From NCBI GenBank assembly GCA_048499675.1, contig JASNZL010000008.1, positions 27 to 64,026 on the forward strand: DNA of 64,000 bases, given 5' to 3'. The notes beneath the pieces were generated by a model. The model ran no database searches. It saw nothing but the letters and a program-made list of their open reading frames with translations, and was not told where the DNA came from. Position 1 is the stretch's first letter, and every line of letters starts with the position of its first letter. This DNA is from Candidatus Zambryskiibacteriota bacterium (GTDB taxonomy: Bacteria > Patescibacteriota > Minisyncoccia > Phycocordibacterales > WO2-35-19). Made by a program: the position numbers and the translations under genes. This document shows positions 2,701-64,000 of this stretch, piece after piece.

Positions 2701-4614
2701 ATGTCCAAAAATAAAAAAGAAGAAAAGAAGAAAATAACTTTAAAAAAAAGTCCGAATGGTGGATTTAAAAACTCTTTTTTTGGTAACTTTTTGATAAGTG
2801 TTCTTATATTATTTTTCGTAATATCTATTTACTCTTTACTATCAGAAAATAAAACAAAAGAAAAGGTAAGCATCTCAGAAGTGGCTCAATCTGTAAGAGC
2901 GGGTGAAATCAAAGAGATAGCTGTAAGAACAAATAATATTGAAGTGACTTATCTGGACGACACAATCAAAACATCTGTCAAAGAAACCAGTTCGAGCATT
3001 GCAGAAACTCTATCTTTTTATGGAGTAACAGAGGAAGTATTGAATAAAGTAAAAATTGAAGTATCGGAAGGTGGGGGATTTTGGTACTGGGTTCTAAACC
3101 TTTCACCGTTTCTTTTCCCAATCCTCTTTATTGGAGTCTTTTTTTGGTTGATGACACGACAAGTCAAAGGTGCTGGTATGCAAGCATTTTCATTTGGGCA
3201 ATCTAGAGCTCGTATGACAGATCCTCTCGATCAAAAACAGAGAGTAACATTTAAAGATGTAGCGGGTTGCAAAGAAGCAAAAGAAGAGTTGTCAGAAATA
3301 GTAGACTTCCTAAAAAATCCTAAGAAATTTTTTGAAATCGGTGCAAGAATTCCAAAAGGCATTCTTCTTATGGGAGCACCGGGAACAGGAAAAACTCTAC
3401 TTGCAAGAGCTGTCGCGGGCGAGGCTGGTGTAGCATTTTTCTCAATATCAGGCTCTGAGTTTGTTGAAATGTTCGTTGGGGTTGGTGCAAGCAGAGTGCG
3501 CGACCTTTTCCAAATCGCAAAAAAAGCAGCACCTGCAATTATATTTATGGATGAAATAGATGCCGTGGGAAGAATAAGAGGTGGAGGTACTGGAGGAGGA
3601 AACGACGAAAGAGAACAGACTCTAAATCAGATTTTGGTTGAGATGGATGGTTTTGAACCAACAGAAAAAGTTATCGTGATGGCAGCCACAAATAGGCCCG
3701 ACGTTTTAGACCCAGCACTTCTACGACCTGGGCGATTTGATAGGAGAGTAACGATTGATCTTCCTGATCGAAATGACAGAGAAGAGATACTAAAAATCCA
3801 CTCTCGAAGCAAACCTTTTGCAGAGGATGTTGATTTAAAACTTATTGCTGAAAGAACACCGGGATTTTCCGGAGCTGATTTATACTCCTTAATGAACGAG
3901 GGTGCCATACTTGCTGCGAGAGAAAACAGAAATAAAATTTCTCAATTTGACTTAATCCGCTCAATAGAAAAAGTGATGCTGGGGCCCGAAAGAAGAAGTC
4001 ATATACTTTCCAAAAAAGAAAAGGAGATAACGGCTTACCACGAAGCAGGGCACGCGCTGGTTGCCTCTCTATTACCTAATGCAGACCCTGTACACAAAAT
4101 TTCTATAATATCTCGAGGTAGAGCTGCTGGCTATACTTTGAAGCTCCCAATAGAAGACCGAAAACTACAATCAAGAAATGAATTTCTTGATGATATAGCA
4201 ATGTCTTTGGGTGGTTATGTAACGGAAAAGATAGTTTTTGGCGATCTTACCACTGGACCATCAAACGACCTTCAAGTCTCGACAGCAATGGCCCGAGATA
4301 TGGTCACAAAATATGGAATGTCAGAAAATTTGGGACCAATTGCTCTTGAAGGTAGTGGTGGTAAAGCGCTTTTTGGCAGAGGAATAAACGACAAAGAATA
4401 TTCAGAAGAGGTTGGAGCCCTTATAGATAAAGAAGTTTCAAAAATAATGAATGATGCCCACAACAAAGCAGTAAAAATTATTACCGAGCACAAGAACCTA
4501 CTTGATATAATCGCCAAACGACTTATTGAAGTCGAGAACATAGAGCGCGATGAATTTGAACAAATACTAATATCAAACGGAGTGCAACCAAAAAAAGCTG
4601 AACAAGTATCTTAG
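2701..4614 (+). CDS. ftsH: ATP-dependent zinc metalloprotease FtsH
   Basis: 637 aa; N-terminal TM segments, Walker [12 protein letters not shown] region, zinc motif HEAGHAL. Confidence 0.95.
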
Positions 4615-4669: not shown

Positions 4670-4745
4670 GCACGCGTAGCTCAGTTGGTAGAGCGCCGAG
4701 CTTATACCTCGGTGGCCGTAGGTTCGAGTCCTACCGCGTGCACCA
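4670..4745 (+). tRNA. tRNA-Ile, anticodon UAU (reads AUA)
   Basis: cloverleaf by hand: acceptor GCACGCG/CGCGTGC, D-arm GCTCAGTTGGTAGAGC, anticodon stem CCGAG/CTCGG with loop CTTATAC, T-arm GTAGGTTCGAGTCCTAC, encoded CCA. Confidence 0.75.
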
Positions 4746-4867: not shown

Positions 4868-4916
4868 ATTTAAAATTATATTTATAACACCGGCGCGCAT
4901 CCTTTTATGAAATAAA

Positions 4917-5056
4917 GGGGAGCAAGGAATCGAAGCCCGATTGAGATTTTTTAGGAACATGGTGAACTAAAAAATCCAATTGGGATACTGATTCTGCTTG
5001 CCCACTCGAAGCTTTAGCGAAGTTGGGTAAGAATCGATTCCTTCCGGTGGCACCCC
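4917..5056 (+). ncRNA. structured element with a tmRNA-like 5' motif and a copy of the tRNA-Arg 3' end; ssrA-like RNA or att-site remnant, unresolved
   Basis: 5' GGGGAGCAAGGAATCGAAGCCCG matches the tmRNA 5' consensus GGGGnnnnnnGGAUUCGAnnGGG. The 3' AATCGATTCCTTCCGGTGGCACC is 22/24 identical to the tRNA-Arg T-arm/acceptor. An internal long hairpin GATTGAGATTTTTTAG/CTAAAAAATCCAATTGGG is present. It is too short for tmRNA, no tag ORF is seen, and there is no G3-U70 pair. Confidence 0.25.
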
Positions 5057-5216
5057 GTAAAATTCGCTACGTCCCGTAAAAAGCAAAGCTTCACAGGATA
5101 AGCTCATCACGGGGCGAGCCACCTATACAAATCAAAAGCCCCGCACCGTATGGCGCAAGGCTTTTGATTAAGTGGGTCTTTTGACTAAAAGCTAGAAGCT
5201 CTTAGCTAAAAGCTAA

Positions 5217-47967: not shown

Positions 47968-48930
47968 TTAGTATTTTATAGTCGCTACTACGAGCCCATT
48001 TTCGTCATGTAAATTTATGACATCATTTTTGGTTCTCCATAACGTACCAAATCTACCTAGATAAACCCTATAAATATTTCCCGGGAAATCGGTGTCCCCA
48101 AAATGGGTAGCTACGCACATATTGTAGTTAATCTGAGTGGTTAAGTATGTTTTGCATGAAGTTGTAACAGTGTCAGGCAAATCTCTAATGAACTCATTAT
48201 CTATTGTTCTACATCTACCTATTCTTTCAATAATCTTTACACACTCATCGTGTCTATCTGGAATGGATGAAAATAATGGGAGATTTTCGTCTTTCGCACG
48301 TGGGCACTGTAGAGGTAATCTTGGGTAAAAAGTGCGGTTTTCTTCAAAATAACCAGTACACTTGTTTGTTCTAAAAGAGATACCGATTGGAGAAAATCCT
48401 TTGGTTACGATGGCCTTATCTCCTTTTTGCAAAACAATGTCACTTTCTGTTTTTGTATTTGGAAAAGGTAAAAGTGATGCTCTACCAATCATTGCGTAAT
48501 TTCCTGTAACTTCACTCCTAAAATACCAGCCAGTAATATTTATCGTTTCAGTTATTTTGAGATTTGTAGACAATGTTAAATATTCTTTGCTTGGGTCACT
48601 TTGCCTAACCCCAGAAATATTGGACATTCTTATTTTGCCATAATATGGCGACCTCTCTTTGGGTACTACTTGCTTCGATATGTTTCTTTCCAGTTTTTGA
48701 AGATCTCTTTCTATTTTTTTTATCTCGTCTGCAAGTACTTTATTTGAAGTTTCTCCAAGATTTGTTCCGGAACTTGTATTGCTTCGTCCGACAGAGGAAG
48801 ACCCTTCTGTAGAAGCAGTTTTGCCCGAGCTTGTCTGTCTGTCACTCGAGCTATTTTTGATTGGTCCATAAGCAAGACCAACTACGATTATTAAAACTAA
48901 TATTACAAATATAGGTGTTTTGTCTTCCAT
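47968..48930 (-). CDS. N-terminally anchored Ser/Thr-rich and Cys-containing extracytoplasmic protein; unknown
   Basis: MEDKTPIFVILVLIIVVGLAYGP anchor; no family recognised. Confidence 0.45.
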   Translation of the reverse strand: MEDKTPIFVILVLIIVVGLAYGPIKNSSSDRQTSSGKTASTEGSSSVGRSNTSSGTNLGETSNKVLADEIKKIERDLQKLERNISKQVVPKERSPYYGKIRMSNISGVRQSDPSKEYLTLSTNLKITETINITGWYFRSEVTGNYAMIGRASLLPFPNTKTESDIVLQKGDKAIVTKGFSPIGISFRTNKCTGYFEENRTFYPRLPLQCPRAKDENLPLFSSIPDRHDECVKIIERIGRCRTIDNEFIRDLPDTVTTSCKTYLTTQINYNMCVATHFGDTDFPGNIYRVYLGRFGTLWRTKNDVINLHDENGLVVATIKY

Positions 48931-56553: not shown

Positions 56554-56811
56554 ACTTTATCTCCTGTTTGGAAAGTTTTATATCGAGTTACGAGCGCTCG
56601 ATATTGGTCCTTAACCATAATAGCATACTACATATTAAAAGTCAATGTTTTATAAAATCATTAAATAGTGTCTTTTGGGCCACTATTTCTTCTTGGCTAA
56701 ATAATTTAGATACTTTTTACTCAGAAGAATCTAACTTATTTGTTATTGAGTCTTGGTATTAATTAATTATTACAACGCCGTGCCTCTCTGCTAGTAAAGC
56801 ACCTTGCTTGC

Positions 56812-57113
56812 TCGAGGGCACAAAATATTTTGTTTTTTGTGCCCTCGGTAGGAGTATTTCCCTCGACTCAAAATTTTTTCAGTCAAAAAATTTCGGTCTG
56901 GGCACCGGCTCATGGAAATTTATTTCTAAAAATTTCACATTCCGCCGTTCGATTTCTTACAGAAACTGTACACCTTTTCTATTTTTATTTCGCAAAACTC
57001 ATAAAAATTATCAAAGGTCTTGCGAAGCTTCAAACATTTGCTTCTCACCTACACGCAAGCAAAGCAGTTTGCTTGCTCGAGAGCACAAAATATTTTGTTT
57101 TTTGTGCCCCACT
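56812..57113. repeat. two 10-13-bp-stem hairpins (CGAGGGCACAAAA..TTTTGTGCCCTCG) bracketing a ~230-bp segment that contains the conserved element 56955-57050
   Basis: hairpins at 56812-56848 and 57077-57113; inner conserved block matches 46369-46464 (reverse complement). Confidence 0.6.
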
Positions 57114-57663
57114 CGGGTCTCGGACGTTGGTATACCAAGCAGTATAAGGGTTTTCGGGAGGATTCCCAAGAGTTGAGATGATGCCTCCGCATAGGGGTCA
57201 GTTTTCACCAAACAGGCGCTTGTGCCTTCAAAAACAGAATGAGACAAATGGGACACTCCTTCACGGGTATTTGGCAGTATCTCAAATGCCAACAAATGCC
57301 AATTTTCTGACACCAAAAAGTGACAAAAGTGACACTCTTTGGACACTTTTTCCGTGTCACTTTTTGCTAAAATCTGATGCGAGACAGAGACAGACGAGAC
57401 ACAGGTTAGAGGTATGCCACGAATGTCTCATCTGGAACCCAAATGGCTAAAAAAAAGGATATTTTACCGCCAATGTTACACCATGTGACACCAAAACAGA
57501 TGTGCATGTGTGTCACTTTTTCGTATTTGGTGGCTTTACAGCCACTTTTCCCGGCACTGCGTCGCTCTTGTGCTAAGTATGAAATTATTGTATTTTACGA
57601 CCTAGAGAGTGACGCCTGTCACAAAACCACAAACAGCACATTCACAAACGAAAGGAGACAGAG

Positions 57664-58809
57664 ATGGAAAAGCTCTTAAATCTTGAAGAACTCAGTAGCC
57701 GTCTCGCGACTGTCGACACGATGATCATGCAGCTCATCATGCGTCGCATGGAGCTCGCTGAGCAGGTTGGAAAATACAAACGCCAAAAGGGCGAGCGGAT
57801 TTTCCGGGCAGATATCGAAGATAGGCGTATCGATGCGATCAGGAAATGGGCTGCGACACACCACCTGAATCCGCATTTCGCCGAATCGGTCTTGTACGCA
57901 CTCATCAACGAGTCATGCAAGCTGCAAATGATCCGACTCCAAGAAGAGTCGCTGGAATCAAGTGAGCCTCAGACCGAAGACCAGTGGTATGAGAAGCTCA
58001 AGCGAAACCTTCTTATCCTCACCGAACGATGGTGCAGTACCTACGACTCAAGCTACGAAAACAGCTACTTCGCGACAAAGGCGTACCTGCGGTACGAGCA
58101 TGAACTGCTCACTCGAGAAATCCAACAATTGACTGATACAGAGCTCATGCTCGACCTTGGGTGCGCGACTGGCAGGATGACGTTCCAATGCCACGATGTG
58201 TTCAGGCGCGTCATGGGGTACGACATCAGCCAGCACATGCGGATGATGGCAAACCAGCTTGCTGAAAGCAAGAACTTACACTCGAAGGTCGCTTTCGAGT
58301 GCACGGACATTGAGGATGGCATCCCAATGCTCGATACTTCCGCATCGTTCGTCGTGATGAACCTTGGCACGGCCAGCGACATTCGGGGCATCGGTAAGGT
58401 GATAGATGAAACGCTTCGGGTGCTCAAGCCCGGAGGTCGATTCTTCTTCTCTTTCTACAATCGAGATGCTCTCGTTTATCGCTGGGAGTTCCTGCCGTGG
58501 GAAGCGGGGTTGGCCGCATCAATCAACATCCACCGCGACTCGCTCGACGTTCACTCGAAAAATGACGACCAGGTGGAGGAAGTCATTCCGGTCTACGCGC
58601 GAGCGTATACGTGGGACGAGGTAATGTCGCTATTCTCCGCTCGAGGAGTGGAGGTGTCGCTCACGACATATCCTACCATCAGCGCCATTCTCCCTCACGA
58701 GTTGTTTACCAAACAGCTCGACGTGCAAGAATCGGTCATCGCGATTGATAATGCGCTTGCTGATACTTCAATGGGTGCCTACATCATTGCGACAGGCGCA
58801 AAGCCTTGA
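57664..58809 (+). CDS. fusion protein: N-terminal AroQ-type chorismate mutase-like domain + C-terminal class I SAM-dependent methyltransferase domain
   Basis: N-terminus LEELSSRLATVDTMIMQLIMRRMELAEQVGKYKRQKGERIFRADIEDRRIDAI fits the AroQ pattern L..LR..ID.ID..L..LL..R..L...IG..K; later LDLGCATGRMT (motif I) and VLKPGGRFFF (post II). Confidence 0.6.
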   Translation: MEKLLNLEELSSRLATVDTMIMQLIMRRMELAEQVGKYKRQKGERIFRADIEDRRIDAIRKWAATHHLNPHFAESVLYALINESCKLQMIRLQEESLESSEPQTEDQWYEKLKRNLLILTERWCSTYDSSYENSYFATKAYLRYEHELLTREIQQLTDTELMLDLGCATGRMTFQCHDVFRRVMGYDISQHMRMMANQLAESKNLHSKVAFECTDIEDGIPMLDTSASFVVMNLGTASDIRGIGKVIDETLRVLKPGGRFFFSFYNRDALVYRWEFLPWEAGLAASINIHRDSLDVHSKNDDQVEEVIPVYARAYTWDEVMSLFSARGVEVSLTTYPTISAILPHELFTKQLDVQESVIAIDNALADTSMGAYIIATGAKP

Positions 58810-58831
58810 TGTCACGTTGGATAACACCTAC

Positions 58832-58862
58832 AACGCGCGAGCTTACCACTCGCGCGTTTTTC
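58832..58862 (+). terminator. rho-independent terminator
   Basis: AACGCGCGAGcttaccaCTCGCGCGTTTTT. Confidence 0.8.
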
Positions 58863-58989
58863 TATCGAATCAATTACATACAATTGACAAAGATAACCCC
58901 ACTGTGATAAATTACAGGTGTTGTTCATTTCAGTATATAAAACCCATATCCGATTCCCTTGAGTAATCAAGGGGTTGGGGTCGGATAGT

Positions 58990-59243
58990 TTTGCGGAGTA
59001 ATTCGCGAAACAGGGTGGTCTCTGCATAAGTGGAGACCCGGCTTCCTCCGTAACCATAGGAAAACCGAAATCGGTCGAAAGACCAGAGCCGGTATAAGTC
59101 CCGAGAGACATCAAGGGAAAAGTAAGGTGGCACCGCGGAAACCCGCCCTTACGATATGAGCAGTTTTGCTTGTATCGTGAGGGCGGTTTTTCATTGGGAA
59201 AAATCGCATAGTTCTTTCACATCAACCAAAGGAGAAATATCTC
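58990..59243 (+). promoter_or_regulatory. ~250-nt structured 5' leader with mutually exclusive antiterminator/terminator helices (riboswitch- or attenuator-like) upstream of the GNAT-like gene
   Basis: terminator ACCCGCCCTTACGATA...TATCGTGAGGGCGGTTTTT (59142-59191) overlaps alternative helix GTAAGG...CCCTTAC (59122-59152); several further local helices (GGTCTC..GAGACC; CCCGGCT..AGCCGG). Confidence 0.4.
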
Positions 59244-59936
59244 ATGAAGCTCTCTGAATACGCAACTAAGAATCAACTTGTCACAAAGGCGGGCGTGTAT
59301 AGCGCCTACCACTTAATGCCTGAGCTACTTTCTAATGAGGTTAAAGACTATCTCTTTAACCTTGTCTATCCAGTTGCTCAAAACGCCTTCGGGCAACAGC
59401 ATTCTGAGGAGTTTGCTCACGATGTCAGAACGCATGTTCTTGACCATTCAAATATTTTGATTGTTCAAGACCATACTGGTGCGGTTATCGCATTTCGAGT
59501 CTGGGATATTCTCCACGGCATCGAAAGAGACATCGTCTATCTTGCTGGTATGTGTGTTACTTATGAATACCAGAAGATCGGTCTAGGAAAGGCGTTGATA
59601 CAGGCTGCAATCGATATTGCGCAAGTATCTCACCCGAATTTGGGCTATGTTGTACTACGTACCCAAAATTGGGCAATGCAGAAGAGTTTGTCTGCTATTG
59701 CTGCAGAATCTGGTGTGTACAAGAAGTTTGGCGACACCAACATTGATGAAGACATGCAAGCCGCCGTTAAGATAGTAGCGGATAAAATCAATGATTCCTG
59801 CATCGTGCCTTCTGAGCTTGTGTCGCGAAAAGTCTATGGCAGTAGCTTATATGGCTCGGCGCATAACTATCAGAACGGCTTCGTTGGGCTAGATGTCTCT
59901 AATGGTGATGCAGCTTACTGCGTTTGGCGACGATGA
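59244..59936 (+). CDS. GNAT-family acetyltransferase-like protein
   Basis: motif A-like YQKIGLGKALIQAAI; beta-strand HTGAVIAFRVWDI. Confidence 0.5.
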   Translation: MKLSEYATKNQLVTKAGVYSAYHLMPELLSNEVKDYLFNLVYPVAQNAFGQQHSEEFAHDVRTHVLDHSNILIVQDHTGAVIAFRVWDILHGIERDIVYLAGMCVTYEYQKIGLGKALIQAAIDIAQVSHPNLGYVVLRTQNWAMQKSLSAIAAESGVYKKFGDTNIDEDMQAAVKIVADKINDSCIVPSELVSRKVYGSSLYGSAHNYQNGFVGLDVSNGDAAYCVWRR

Positions 59937-60013: not shown

Positions 60014-60823
60014 ATGTTACAGAGCATTAAAAAAATACTTATTGTTGGCAGTACGCATGGACACGAAAGGATAGGTCTTGCTGTTATCGAAGAGTTAAAA
60101 AAACTAAATATACCGAACGATCAACTCCGTTTTGAAATTGGCAACCCGAGAGCTTCAGAGAAAAATATTCCCTTTATCGACTCAGATCTCAATCGCATCT
60201 TTCCTGGTAATCCGAATGGTACATACGAAGAACGGCTGGCATTTGAACTATTACCAAAGATCAGGGATGTTGATTTGGTGATAGACATTCACTCAACCAA
60301 TACCACTGATTTATCTGAAAACTCAATGCTTATCGTCACAAAATATGATACCGTCACCAGAGATATTGTTGGCACTATCAATCCTCCGAAAGTTTTGGTG
60401 ATGAAATATAAAAGTGATAGCGCCCTCATTTCGCAAGCACGAATTGGTGTGGCATTTGAGTATGGGAAAGACACGAGCGAATCCGTATTACAAGCTACCC
60501 TGTTCGACATTGCTGAAGTTTTGATTGCCTGCGGATTCATTTCTAGAAATCCATATACAACCACAAAACATAATGAACGTACTGACGCTTTTGAGGTATA
60601 CGATTCATATAAAAAAGACTTTCTCGGGAAGTTTACACTTGCACCCGAAATAAAAAATTTCCAATTAGTCACACAAGGTTCTTTTTTGGGCGTAACCGAT
60701 TCTGGCGTAGAAGTACTTGCAGATGAAAGTTTTGTCCCGATTCTGTTTGGAGAAAACAGATATACGGAAATATTGGGTTTTAAGGCAAAGAAAATAGCGC
60801 CACCCACGAAGGAATGGCGCTAG
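60014..60823 (+). CDS. succinylglutamate desuccinylase / aspartoacylase (AstE/AspA) family zinc hydrolase (start moved to internal ATG)
   Basis: ILIVGSTHGHERIG...DSDLNRIFPG...DLVIDIHS matches the family zinc-binding/catalytic motifs. Confidence 0.7.
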   Translation: MLQSIKKILIVGSTHGHERIGLAVIEELKKLNIPNDQLRFEIGNPRASEKNIPFIDSDLNRIFPGNPNGTYEERLAFELLPKIRDVDLVIDIHSTNTTDLSENSMLIVTKYDTVTRDIVGTINPPKVLVMKYKSDSALISQARIGVAFEYGKDTSESVLQATLFDIAEVLIACGFISRNPYTTTKHNERTDAFEVYDSYKKDFLGKFTLAPEIKNFQLVTQGSFLGVTDSGVEVLADESFVPILFGENRYTEILGFKAKKIAPPTKEWR

Positions 60824-60836
60824 GTTGTTTGCGTGA

Positions 60837-61799
60837 TCAAGAGACAATTCCCTTGATCGCTTGGAGCGTTTGGTGCTGGCTCTGTGGAAGCACATTGCCA
60901 ATCACGTTGTTGAGGACGGTCACTACGCCTTGCGGCTTGGAACCAATCGGATTCACGATGAGAACCATACCTTTGGCAAAGTGCCTGGTGCTGATGCTAA
61001 ACGCATTAGACCGAAACACACTGCCGACGAGCTTGTGGATACCGTCCGGCGTATACCAGTGAGACAGGAAGAAGCCGCTTCTCCCTTCAGTCTGCCCAAC
61101 AATCTGGAGCGCCGCGATGGACGGTATTGCGCCGGAAGAGATTTCTCGCTGCATTGCGGCAAGCGAGTCTCTCACTGCGATCTTCCTGATCTCCTCGCCC
61201 GAAGTTGAGATTTTGGCGCGGATGCCTGTCGATGTGGGCTCATTCGTTTCCGAAAGTTCTACCCAATCGAACAGGAATTCTTCGCCAAGGACCCTCTCGT
61301 TCCGAAGGTACTCATCGTACCCGCAGAAAGGATATCCGACTTGCGGATCGGCCTTGAAGAAAGCCTCGCAGTTGTAGACCCCGATAATGAGTCGTCTGGG
61401 CTTGCGCTCGATTTCTCTGCAAACGTGAGCGATCTCACCCGAAAGGAACACCATCTCCACACCGTCGTCTATGAACGACTTCAGTATGGAAGACTTGGCT
61501 CGATTGACTTGCTGTGGTGCCAGATCATTGAAGACTACTCGAGGAACGTATCCCCCTGTTCGAGAAAATGTATCCTCGAGAAGCATCTTTGGATCACGAC
61601 TCCCAACAGCGCCGCCGAGAGTGACTATATCCTCGCAATCGACTTCTCGATATGCATCAAGGACAGCGTCCATTTCTCCCTGGTTGTCTGTCGTCATTTC
61701 TTCGTTTTCGTACGTGGCTGCCTGGGCGTCCCAGAAGGCCTTTTGGCCTTCAACGGTAAGAGTTGGCTTGCGCCAACCATCTTCTCCTGACTTACTCAT
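60837..61799 (-). CDS. hypothetical protein, weak resemblance to a SAM-dependent methyltransferase fold
   Basis: IVTLGGAVGS...FNDL pattern only. Confidence 0.3.
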   Translation of the reverse strand: MSKSGEDGWRKPTLTVEGQKAFWDAQAATYENEEMTTDNQGEMDAVLDAYREVDCEDIVTLGGAVGSRDPKMLLEDTFSRTGGYVPRVVFNDLAPQQVNRAKSSILKSFIDDGVEMVFLSGEIAHVCREIERKPRRLIIGVYNCEAFFKADPQVGYPFCGYDEYLRNERVLGEEFLFDWVELSETNEPTSTGIRAKISTSGEEIRKIAVRDSLAAMQREISSGAIPSIAALQIVGQTEGRSGFFLSHWYTPDGIHKLVGSVFRSNAFSISTRHFAKGMVLIVNPIGSKPQGVVTVLNNVIGNVLPQSQHQTLQAIKGIVS

Positions 61800-61823: not shown

Positions 61824-62300
61824 TTACTGATGTGTTTGAGAGATGTCCGCAATCGTTGCTCCGATGGCGTTCACCATTTCTTTAGAGCCGATCGCGATTG
61901 TCTTTCGCGGATCACCTGACCCGCAATAGATCAACTGCCGAGCCAAGAGAGCGTTATCCACGATATGTCGCTGGAAGAAGTCATGGAACGGACTCGCGTC
62001 TCCCGGGTTCAGCCCGATTTCTCGGGTGATTTCTGGGCCAGCAAACTTTACCGTTTTCCTTGATACGCCGAGGATGGCAGCGACTTTTGAGAAGTCGACC
62101 CGATTCATACCCGGTAGAATAGCGGCAATGAGGCCAATATTCTTCTGATCAAGGATCACAGTCTTAGCCATTGCGTCCCTCGGAATGTCCAAAGTTTGAA
62201 CGACATCGTCCATTGTGATCACAGGATCATGCTCCATCACCCTCGGAGAATACCCTGAATCTTTGAGTCTCCGTATGATTTTTTCTGTTGACGTTTCCAT
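61824..62300 (-). CDS. YbaK/ProX-type aminoacyl-tRNA trans-editing deacylase domain protein
   Basis: KTVILD, GLIAAILPGMNRVDFSKVAAILG, GLNPGDASPF match the YbaK/EbsC family. Confidence 0.7.
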   Translation of the reverse strand: METSTEKIIRRLKDSGYSPRVMEHDPVITMDDVVQTLDIPRDAMAKTVILDQKNIGLIAAILPGMNRVDFSKVAAILGVSRKTVKFAGPEITREIGLNPGDASPFHDFFQRHIVDNALLARQLIYCGSGDPRKTIAIGSKEMVNAIGATIADISQTHQ

Positions 62301-62464: not shown

Positions 62465-63457
62465 CTAGTAGAGGACGATACCCATCTTCTCCCGAACAAG
62501 CTCGGTGGTTGCCTTGATTCTGGCGCGAGCCTTTTTGCCGCCTTCGTGAAGCACGTTTTTGACGTAATCGTTTTGGCTGGCGAGCTTGACGCGCTTTTCC
62601 TGAAAGGGCTCCAAGATTTTGGCAATGCCGTCAACCAAAAGATGCTTGCAGGCGGCACAGCCGATTTGCGCCGAGATGCACAGTTTCGCGATCTCTCGAC
62701 TCTCGACCTCGCCTTCCGTCACTAGCTCGTGGACAGGATAGACGGATTGACACCGATTGTACGGATCGCCGGGGTCGGAGACGCGAAGACGTTGCGGATC
62801 AGTAATGCCTTTCTTCAGATAGCGATCGCGAATTTCTTCGATGCCGGCATTGATGTCGATGGCATTGTCCGCTTCCGACTTGCCCATCTTCGCGCCGTCA
62901 AGACCGGGTACCTTGATCATCTGCGCCATCATCTCGGGAACGACGAACGTGTCCCCAAAACGCTTGTTGAAACGATTCGCAAGATTGCGAGCCATCTCAA
63001 CGTTCGGCACCTGATCCTCACCAACTGGCACCAGTGTTGCCTTGGGACCAAGAATGTCGGCTGCCATGAGGACAGGGTACGTCACGAGCCCGAGGTTCAC
63101 GTTGTCCGGATTCTTGCGAACCAGATCCTTGAACGTTGGGACCCGTTCGAGCTCACCGAGTGACTGGATCATCGAAAGATACAGGCACAGTTCAGAGATT
63201 TCCGGTACGCTTGATTGAGCGTAAATGATCGATTGCTCCGGGTCGAGACCCGCGGCAATGTAATCCTTCACGATTTCAATCAAATTGCCCCGAAGCTCTT
63301 CTGGATTCTCGAGCGTCGTCAGTGTATGCCAGTCGGCGATGAAGTAAAGGCAGGTATTGCCTGGTTGCTGGAACTTCACGAAGTTTTGTACCGCTCCGAG
63401 AAAGTTTCCGAAGTGGAGGCGCCCTGTAGCGCGGATTCCTGATAGGACTGTTTCCAT
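62465..63457 (-). CDS. trpS: tryptophanyl-tRNA synthetase (class I). The start is placed at the ATG preceded by AAGGAG; the ORF-track start lies further upstream.
   Basis: GRLHFGNFLGAV (HIGH-type), KMGKS (KMSKS), GEDQVPNVE, overall length 331 aa typical of bacterial TrpRS. Confidence 0.9.
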   Translation of the reverse strand: METVLSGIRATGRLHFGNFLGAVQNFVKFQQPGNTCLYFIADWHTLTTLENPEELRGNLIEIVKDYIAAGLDPEQSIIYAQSSVPEISELCLYLSMIQSLGELERVPTFKDLVRKNPDNVNLGLVTYPVLMAADILGPKATLVPVGEDQVPNVEMARNLANRFNKRFGDTFVVPEMMAQMIKVPGLDGAKMGKSEADNAIDINAGIEEIRDRYLKKGITDPQRLRVSDPGDPYNRCQSVYPVHELVTEGEVESREIAKLCISAQIGCAACKHLLVDGIAKILEPFQEKRVKLASQNDYVKNVLHEGGKKARARIKATTELVREKMGIVLY

Positions 63458-63570
63458 CTTTGTCTCCTTTGGTTTGTGAATGAACTGTTTTGAGAAAGCC
63501 ACCATGGATTTCTCGCCGATGTTACCATAACACGATTTTCCGCTTAATACAAGGGTTTCGTCACGCAACC
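63458..63570 (-). promoter_or_regulatory. promoter/5' leader of trpS (copy 2 of the duplicated leader)
   Basis: candidate -35 TTGTAT, 17-nt spacer, -10 TATGGT; dyad CGAGAAATCCATGGTGGCTTTCTC; SD AAGGAG 8 nt before ATG. Confidence 0.5.
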
Positions 63571-64000
63571 ACACCACTCCGTAGAGTGGTGTGGTGTTTC
63601 GGCGGATAGGACTTCTGCCTCTCCTTGGAGATCGGAGCCTCTCGTCGCGTACGACGTTCCCGCCGGCCGGTTAGCCGGACTTTGCCCAATCATCTCACTC
63701 ATCTCCTGTGGCGTACCGCAGACGGGGTAAGTCAGAGGGCTCGCCGGCCGTCTGTACTTAATGATTAGTATTTAAGATTTGTGTAGTCGAGTTACCAACA
63801 GCTTGCCAACTACCCCTCCTGGACTCCTCGGAGGGGTAGCGTCATCAATGTAGCTGCATGACACACACAACAACAGCGCCGTCTGGGGCTACGGCAAACA
63901 TTGCAAGCTCCGCAAGCGTGAAATATTGTCTCTACGCCAGAAAAAGTACCGAACAGGAGGACAAGCAGGTGCTTTCCATCGACTCCCAGATCAAGGAAAT

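Follow-up and report, generated by a model that had tools for sequence, protein, structure and literature searches.

A stretch of 64,000 nucleotides from a Candidatus Zambryskiibacteriota bacterium (GenBank contig JASNZL010000008.1; hereafter the window) carries towards its 3' end a gene for a GNAT-fold protein preceded by a long untranslated leader, and the question raised by this locus is what the leader senses. The original prediction, confined to positions 58990-59243, saw there a riboswitch-like attenuator that might respond either to a ligand or to a tRNA. Our analysis indicates that the leader of this GNAT/AstE-like operon, spanning approximately 58920-59243, acts on transcription termination as a T-box riboswitch and probably senses tRNA-Trp by means of the codon UGG, a reading to which we assign a probability of roughly 75%. 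It is a T-box of unusual reduced architecture and not a new riboswitch class.

The choice between termination and read-through is laid out in two overlapping structures:

59122 to 59152, plus strand: T-box antiterminator, with helix A1 (GUAAGG/CCUUAC), a 7-nt bulge UGGCACC (59128-59134) and helix A2 (GCGG-AAAC-CCGC)
59143 to 59191, plus strand: intrinsic terminator with U5, its 5' arm being the 3' half of the antiterminator

The terminator hairpin itself (59143-59186) comprises 20 pairs, 10 of them G-C, with a 4-nt loop GUUU and TTTTT immediately after it, and folds with -39.5 kcal/mol, which bears out the earlier proposal of a strong terminator and T5 upstream of the GNAT gene. Its 5' strand, CCGCCCUUAC (59143-59152), alternatively pairs with GCGG (59135-59138) and with GUAAGG (59122-59127), as had also been foreseen for the latter segment; the resulting antiterminator has an energy of -11.6 kcal/mol and is the minimum free energy structure of the RNA lacking the 3' arm of the terminator. 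As both structures need CCGCCCUUAC, they are mutually exclusive. The antiterminator contains the T-box sequence AAGGUGGCACCGCGG at 59124-59138, with the bulge UGGCACC separating helix A1 from A2. In the whole window the exact 12-mer GGTGGNACCRCG is found once; allowing one mismatch, 0.31 matches would be expected by chance.

At gathering thresholds Rfam recovers from the whole window only a tmRNA and three tRNAs. Under permissive thresholds the T-box family (RF00230) aligns end to end over 58937-59153 with 29.4 bits against a gathering cut-off of 93 bits (E = 9.4e-5 in a search of 501 nt and 0.012 in that of the whole window); we attribute the low score to the departures of this leader from known T-boxes, namely its truncated Stem I, an extra hairpin and a G-C pair at A2. 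The weak but full-length match, the T-box sequence and the F-box pseudoknot described below are at odds with the earlier view, formed by eye, that no known riboswitch class could be recognized, and of the two kinds of attenuation originally offered the tRNA-responsive one stands, the ligand-responsive one giving way to a T-box. A metabolite riboswitch of an undescribed class, or a guanidine-I riboswitch, acting through the same terminator would be in keeping with a long, structured and well-folded leader that reaches the gathering score of no Rfam family. We regard it as highly improbable: the expression platform is a T-box sequence with a UGGNACC bulge, the T-box model accommodates the helices upstream of it, and, the T-box apart, no Rfam riboswitch family, guanidine-I (ykkC) included, matched 58800-59300 even at E<=10. 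The resemblance to guanidine-I suggested earlier is not supported and comes down to a short GUCCCGAGAG-like string; in the T-box this segment falls within Stem III, a weak hairpin whose 5' strand and loop it makes up. Motif, nhmmer and Rfam searches found no T-box upstream of the trpS gene of the window or elsewhere in it.

The upstream limits of the T-box leader are marked by the following features:

57664 to 58809: chorismate-mutase/methyltransferase gene, upstream of the leader, from a domain search
58832 to 58858, plus strand: intrinsic terminator of this upstream gene, a 10-bp stem with seven G-C pairs and then a T run
58884 to 58913, plus strand: sigma-70-like promoter, with TTGACA at 58884, an 18-nt spacer, TAAATT ending at 58913 and TG upstream of the -10 element

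Since the upstream gene has its own terminator, the leader constitutes a separate transcription unit. By consensus match the promoter agrees at 10 of 12 positions and has a TG-extended -10, and transcription is predicted to start near 58920, giving an untranslated leader of about 320 nt up to the GNAT ATG at 59244. The segment 58930-59200 folds with -119.9 kcal/mol and a z-score of -7.84, and none of 200 shuffles folded equally well. The leader is hence as structured as had been claimed, but a start at 58990 is too narrow: the functional unit opens about 70 nt further upstream, at the promoter, and the Stem I hairpin (58948-58986) lies wholly outside the extent first given.

Between promoter and antiterminator the elements of the aptamer follow one another thus:

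58948 to 58986, plus strand: Stem I, with a lower helix AUCCGAU/GUCGGAU, an upper helix CCCUUGA/UCAAGGG capped by GUAA, and a 1-nt 5' bulge
58976 to 58978, plus strand: proposed Specifier UGG (Trp), then the purine G58979, read from the sequence in an inferred register
58990 to 59010, plus strand: extra small hairpin between Stems I and II, UUUGCG-GAGUAAUU-CGC(G)AAA, outside the canonical T-box plan
59017 to 59038, plus strand: putative Stem II, GGUCUCU-GCAUAAGU-GGAGACC, with a conserved purine-rich RAGUGGAGA on its 3' side
59039 to 59062, plus strand: putative Stem IIA with F-box and IIB pseudoknot, formed by CGG/CCG, the F-box CCGUAA (59048-59053), and UUCCU (59043-59047) with AGGAA (59058-59062)
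59064 to 59093, plus strand: helix ACCG/CGGU (59064-59067 with 59090-59093) enclosing a hairpin GGUC-GAAA-GACC
59094 to 59121, plus strand: purine-rich linker AUAAG, weak Stem III (UCCC at 59099-59102 with GGGA at 59115-59118) and AAA, containing GUCCCGAGAG

For comparison we assembled 46 loci that surround homologues of the GNAT protein or of a neighboring aspS gene; the first 39 were searched by nhmmer with the window leader as query, and the aspS loci added later by Rfam and motif searches. Only one locus carries a sequence homologue of the leader, the metagenome contig L019 (positions 3413-3673; nhmmer E 4e-13; Rfam T-box 38.5 bits), which by eye has a promoter-like site and a terminator of its own. 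A search of viral contigs by DNA pattern added no further homologues. The two leaders were registered by hand with N padding, the sequences stripped of padding being equal to the real ones. In this registered alignment, whose hand-fitting to the proposed structure biases the pair counts, 98.3% of the cells over 65 pairs in 11 helices are paired, and 21 pairs have changed on both sides yet remain paired. When the 3' partners were slid by 1-3 columns, just 38-56% of the cells were paired, with 0-3 double-sided changes; column shuffles gave 10.4+-2.3 such changes, and 0 of 500 reached the observed value. Between the two leaders nothing has changed in the loop GUUGGG, in the F-box region or in the T-box bulge, while the helices around them have drifted, and this combination of invariant motifs with helices that differ at 21 pairs but are 98% paired indicates purifying selection.

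The changes can be followed from stem to stem. Stem I has a 6-nt internal loop GUUGGG on its 3' side (58974-58979), identical in both leaders, and its two helices (14 pairs) are fully paired in both, with 8 pairs changed on both sides. The extra hairpin, also fully paired, shows 3 such changes among its 6 pairs. The hairpin 59017-59038, with one double-sided change in 7 pairs, may be read as Stem II, given that Rfam sets it on the second helix of the model with UAAGU opposite the consensus AAGUA; where the S-turn consensus has a 5' GAA the two leaders have GCA and GCG, while the purine string RAGUGGAGA is conserved. Likewise, CGG..CCGUAA may be read as Stem IIA with the F-box, as Rfam places it on the third helix of the model, whose consensus is CGUUA; the sequence also agrees with the F-box pattern CCGUNA. 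The IIB pseudoknot has a compensatory change from U-A to C-G in L019; RNAalifold gives a nested alternative to the IIA/B pseudoknot. The outer ACCG/CGGU helix is invariant, and in the hairpin that it encloses all 4 comparable pairs have changed on both sides. Stem III, the flanks of which carry the motif RRRxG...AA in described T-boxes (PMC7583486), has 4 bp in the window and 7 bp at the same place in L019; the motif fits completely in L019 (AAAAG...AA) and partially in the window, where one flanking position is a non-purine. A long-range pairing of GCGGAG with CUCCGU in the window, tried as a 'big Stem II', was discarded: L019 is unable to form it and it clashes with IIA.

T-box leaders scoring below threshold were also recovered upstream of non-discriminating aspS genes in related contigs that are probably from the Candidate Phyla Radiation (CPR):

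L041, 659 to 833 (equal to L042, 228 to 402, and L043, 155 to 329): aspS T-box leaders, RF00230 28.5 bits
L046, 1231 to 1445: aspS T-box leader, RF00230 26.6 bits
L044, 1270 to 1394, and L045, 473 to 597: aspS T-box leaders, from the motif only
L035, 3121 to 3320: aspS T-box leader of the sub-threshold group

Their first element is a 4-bp hairpin that presents GAC followed by A in a 7-nt terminal loop and whose stem covaries (GCAA/UUGC versus GCAG/CUGC). Their bulge reads UGGC, which fits G73 of tRNA-Asp and tRNA-Asn; a G-C pair stands at the base of A2 in L041, L044 and L046, and clear terminators with U tracts are seen in L041 and L046. That these leaders combine a loop GAC with a UGGC bulge implies that the same codon and discriminator logic holds in these lineages. 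Thus, T-boxes that have a reduced Stem I and terminate transcription recur in these organisms, and every one scored by Rfam lies far below threshold. The window has a second structured region, on the plus strand at 4896-5170, where about 290 nt follow tRNA-Ile(UAU) and tRNA-Arg(CCU) and end in a terminator-like hairpin (-109.6 kcal/mol; z = -6.36). It matches no Rfam family at E<=1, contains GGTGGCACCCCG, one mismatch away from the T-box motif, and has no downstream gene on that strand; we consider it a candidate for an unannotated non-coding RNA. The one-mismatch motif, at 5046, was set aside as part of this different structured RNA.

As to which tRNA the GNAT leader would sense, only one register of GUUGGG, UGG followed by G, ends the loop with a purine 3' of the codon in both leaders and at the same time agrees with UGGC. 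From the UGGC of the bulge it follows that the discriminator base should be G (G73), and Specifier and bulge together would fit tRNA-Trp. The experimentally tested Trp T-box of Streptococcus suis trpX has the same UGG specifier and UGGC bulge (PMC9382623). Gene context with trpS offers independent support for Trp that is suggestive but not decisive: relatives carry the GNAT/AstE genes 17-18 nt behind a gene passing the TIGR00233 trpS cut-off, in an apparent operon, and in the window trpS heads the adjoining convergent run of genes. Judged by motifs of this kind, the T-box is probably specific for Trp.

T-boxes for another G73 tRNA have to be weighed against this, either tRNA-Ser, if 59017-59038 were an ultrashort Stem I displaying AGU and G in its terminal loop, or tRNA-Gly, if GGG were read within GUUGGG. 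The discriminator base of bacterial tRNA-Ser is G73 and that of bacterial tRNA-Gly is U73. The loops GCAUAAGU and GCGUGAGU both keep AGU with a G after it, the G73 of tRNA-Ser suits UGGC, and the aspS leaders do show their codon in a terminal loop; but Rfam places this hairpin on the second helix of its model, with AGU opposite the AGUA motif and the IIA/B pseudoknot directly after it, the position expected of Stem II, and the first hairpin behind the promoter is the one whose invariant loop is flanked by 8 compensatory pairs. The case for glycine starts from the aspS-leader codon following UU, a register that would yield GGG in GUUGGG, but this GGG would precede a paired C in L019, and U73 misfits UGGC. 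Neither a seryl nor a glycyl gene is linked to the locus, whereas trpS is, and we deem a serine or glycine T-box unlikely.

With tRNA-Trp as the preferred ligand, the short Stem I would present UGG to the anticodon as the RNA emerges, with Stem II and the IIA/B pseudoknot lending support. The 3' end of uncharged tRNA-Trp, GCCA, would pair with the UGGC of the 7-nt bulge and stabilize the weak antiterminator, so that RNA polymerase could continue into both regulated genes, GNAT and amidohydrolase. With charged tRNA the antiterminator would stay unstabilized, and the stronger terminator (-39.5 kcal/mol) would form and stop transcription at the U tract. We infer both the binding of the tRNA and the response to it.

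Several observations weigh against a tryptophan T-box. The Rfam score is far under the curated cut-off. Stem I spans 39 nt and is topped by a 7-bp helix with a GUAA loop, and in the Rfam alignment 90 Stem I positions of the RF00230 model are covered by only 65 nt; it lacks the AG bulge and distal loop, which in a long Stem I form the double T-loop platform that docks the tRNA elbow. Inspection by eye of the base of Stem I, below 58948/58986, and of L019 showed no kink-turn (K-turn; tandem G.A), no dedicated search having been run. The pair closing A2, G59135-C59146, is G-C in place of the canonical G.U that L019 has; it is to G.U at this position beside the bulge that steric sensing of the aminoacyl group has been ascribed (PMC7583486). 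The comparison comprises two homologous sequences only, and the homologous leader in L019 controls a gene other than GNAT. Moreover, the nearest GNAT orthologues (L023, at 70% identity, L024 and L028) have no T-box, and by motif search, nhmmer and Rfam none was detected at the orthologous GNAT loci L002-L018, L020-L034 and L036-L039. The check named by the original prediction, covariation and presence in other loci, comes out in favor of a real element, as L019 supplies a homologous leader with 21 compensatory pairs; the closest orthologous GNAT loci, however, lack the leader. No tRNA-Trp gene is present in the window or in any of the loci, and the only tRNAs of the window are tRNA-Ile(UAU), tRNA-Arg(CCU) and tRNA-Lys(UUU). 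Finally, in some contigs the GNAT/AstE pair adjoins aspS as well, which weakens the argument from synteny with trpS.

A Stem I with no recognizable platform or K-turn, the weak 4-bp Stem III, the G-C pair at A2 and the absence of the element from the nearest orthologous loci would also be expected of a decayed, non-functional T-box, or of a constitutive attenuator deaf to tRNA. Yet all motifs that decoding and recognition of the tRNA 3' end require are intact and invariant across the two leaders, and the pattern of helix changes indicates purifying selection, as noted above. The aspS T-boxes from related contigs likewise have G-C at the base of A2, and a terminator of -39.5 kcal/mol without relief would silence the operon. 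Such a relic is therefore quite unlikely, and we retain a functional T-box read by tRNA-Trp as the preferred interpretation.

The genes behind the leader and those that face them are as follows:

59244 to 59936, plus strand: first regulated gene, a 230-aa GNAT-fold protein (Pfam Acetyltransf_1 and Acetyltransf_7), with the ribosome-binding site AGGAG at 59230-59234
60014 to 60823, plus strand: second regulated gene, an amidohydrolase of the succinylglutamate desuccinylase/aspartoacylase family (AstE_AspA; Pfam PF24827, 1.3e-16)
60837 to 61799, minus strand: 320-aa open reading frame (ORF) with no Pfam or NCBIfam match, following trpS on the same strand
61824 to 62300, minus strand: YbaK-like deacylase gene (aminoacyl-tRNA editing; tRNA_edit domain), following trpS
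62465 to 63577, minus strand: trpS (tryptophan-tRNA ligase; TIGR00233, 256 bits versus a cut-off of 176.75), heading the convergent gene run

The AlphaFold2 model of the GNAT protein has a pLDDT (predicted local distance difference test) of 92.9, and its best Foldseek matches are acetyl-CoA N-acetyltransferases with TM (template modeling) scores of about 0.45-0.5; at the sequence level the protein resembles solved structures only remotely. The top 50 Foldseek matches listed are GNAT-fold acetyltransferases, nearly all named N-acetyltransferases, and none among them is an aminoacyl-tRNA-dependent transferase of the Fem or L/F type, a role that we had considered. Among related contigs that extend far enough to reveal a neighbor, most have the AstE_AspA gene beside the GNAT gene; L019 has just an 83-aa ORF that by eye resembles the C-terminal end of the AstE_AspA gene. 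As to the physiological role of the two enzymes, our guess is that a drop in Trp charging turns on a Trp-linked step of salvage or modification; more speculatively, induction by Trp starvation would suit the release of Trp from N-acylated forms. The run of trpS, the YbaK-like gene and the 320-aa ORF converges on the T-box operon. The 320-aa ORFs at 60837-61799 and 47968-48930 were compared as possible paralogues and show no similarity. The gene behind the L019 T-box (3892-4236), inside which the contig ends, encodes a protein with a P-loop-like motif, GPCRSGTT. It has no homologue in a search of 5.8 billion proteins and no Pfam domain, and tblastn finds no copy of it in the window.

The arrangement of the GNAT gene differs among relatives. 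In most of those compared (P0002-P0016) chorismate mutase and GNAT form one fused protein of 330 aa directly after trpS, usually without a T-box, whereas in the window the chorismate mutase domain is fused to a methyltransferase and GNAT is a separate gene behind the T-box. The nearest relative, L023, has the GNAT-chorismate mutase fusion, and its chorismate mutase domain is 49% identical to that of the chorismate mutase-methyltransferase protein of the window; relative to this fusion, what separates the two parts in the window is a methyltransferase domain together with a terminator, a promoter and the T-box. GNAT family members come from metagenome-assembled genomes labeled Candidatus Paceibacterota, Parcubacteria and Moraniibacteriota, and the aspS homologues of the same contigs carry the source names Minisyncoccia, Paceibacterota or Parcubacteria. 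Upstream of the chorismate mutase-methyltransferase gene lies a stretch of about 1.1 kb (56560-57660) with no convincing ORF, in which a 55-nt direct repeat (56790-56844 and 57055-57109) is 91% identical between its copies. By eye, about 300 nt of it (about 57110-57430) are conserved upstream of the chorismate mutase-GNAT gene of L023 (860-1190); the stretch could be a non-coding RNA or the remnant of a mobile element. A tRNA-Ile(UAU) lies directly upstream of the trpS/chorismate mutase-GNAT/AstE operon in L028 (2774-2848) and L002 (1267-1341). That of the window (4670-4745) follows FtsH, far from the GNAT locus, and this difference in placement suggests rearrangement; FtsH followed by tRNA-Ile(UAU) is common to the window and L028, and this, taken with the source names given above, makes it probable that the window stems from a CPR bacterium.

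T-boxes are textbook regulators of Firmicutes and Actinobacteria. A full-text literature search found no report of a T-box in CPR bacteria, and in the literature searched the only T-boxes credited with a truncated or ultrashort Stem I are the translational ones of ileS. We tentatively propose, at somewhat less than even odds, that CPR bacteria hold an undescribed lineage of transcription-terminating T-boxes with a truncated or ultrashort Stem I, which score far under the Rfam cut-off and would escape notice there, and that the present leader is a member placed before a GNAT/AstE-like pair that otherwise travels with trpS. If this is true, the pair would represent a new Trp-starvation response, such as the salvage of Trp that has been N-acylated, in organisms to which very little regulation or amino-acid metabolism is ascribed. 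If the variant works, docking of the tRNA elbow would be dispensable even for a kinetically demanding co-transcriptional decision, and annotation by Rfam thresholds would under-count T-boxes in bacteria with reduced genomes. The specifier would moreover provide a functional handle, Trp, on the conserved and uncharacterized chorismate-mutase/GNAT/AstE module beside trpS.

Set beside known systems, the leader resembles the class I transcriptional T-boxes (RF00230; e.g. Bacillus subtilis tyrS and trpS, and S. suis trpX) in its T-box sequence with a UGGN bulge, in the competition of an A1/A2 antiterminator with an intrinsic terminator, and in having a putative Stem II, the F-box with the IIA/B pseudoknot, and a weak Stem III. 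It differs from them in a Stem I of about 39 nt without AG bulge, distal-loop platform or recognizable K-turn, in an extra hairpin between Stems I and II, in an A2 closed by G-C, in scoring 29 against 93 bits, in its probable CPR host, and in preceding GNAT and AstE/AspA-like genes instead of genes for a synthetase, biosynthesis or transport. With the aspS leaders L041, L044 and L046 it shares the kind of organism, the UGGC bulge, the G-C pair at the base of A2 and a reduced Stem I, and with L041 and L046 also the terminator and U tract; in those leaders, unlike in the window, a 4-bp Stem I presents GAC and A in its terminal loop, a synthetase gene is controlled and Stem II was not identified by eye, and nhmmer with the window leader found no sequence similarity to them. 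The class II or 'ultrashort' translational ileS T-boxes of Actinobacteria (Mycobacterium tuberculosis, M. smegmatis and Nocardia farcinica) are similar in combining a truncated Stem I devoid of the elbow platform with a retained Stem II and IIA/B pseudoknot, which in those T-boxes compensate for the missing platform (PMC11297988; PMC7913692). The ultrashort T-boxes are translational, all regulate ileS and respond to tRNA-Ile (bioRxiv 10.1101/2023.02.28.530422), whereas the window leader has a Trp-type specifier and no Ile codon in its specifier loop, and holds its proposed codon in an internal and not a terminal loop. Furthermore, class II ileS T-boxes sequester the Shine-Dalgarno sequence, in place of which the window leader has a 20-bp terminator with U5 and a ribosome-binding site 39 nt beyond it. 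According to TBDB it is the transcriptional T-boxes that have the longer Stem I (PMC7778990), and, as far as its sequence tells, the joining of a truncated Stem I to a strong terminator would set this leader apart from described T-boxes.

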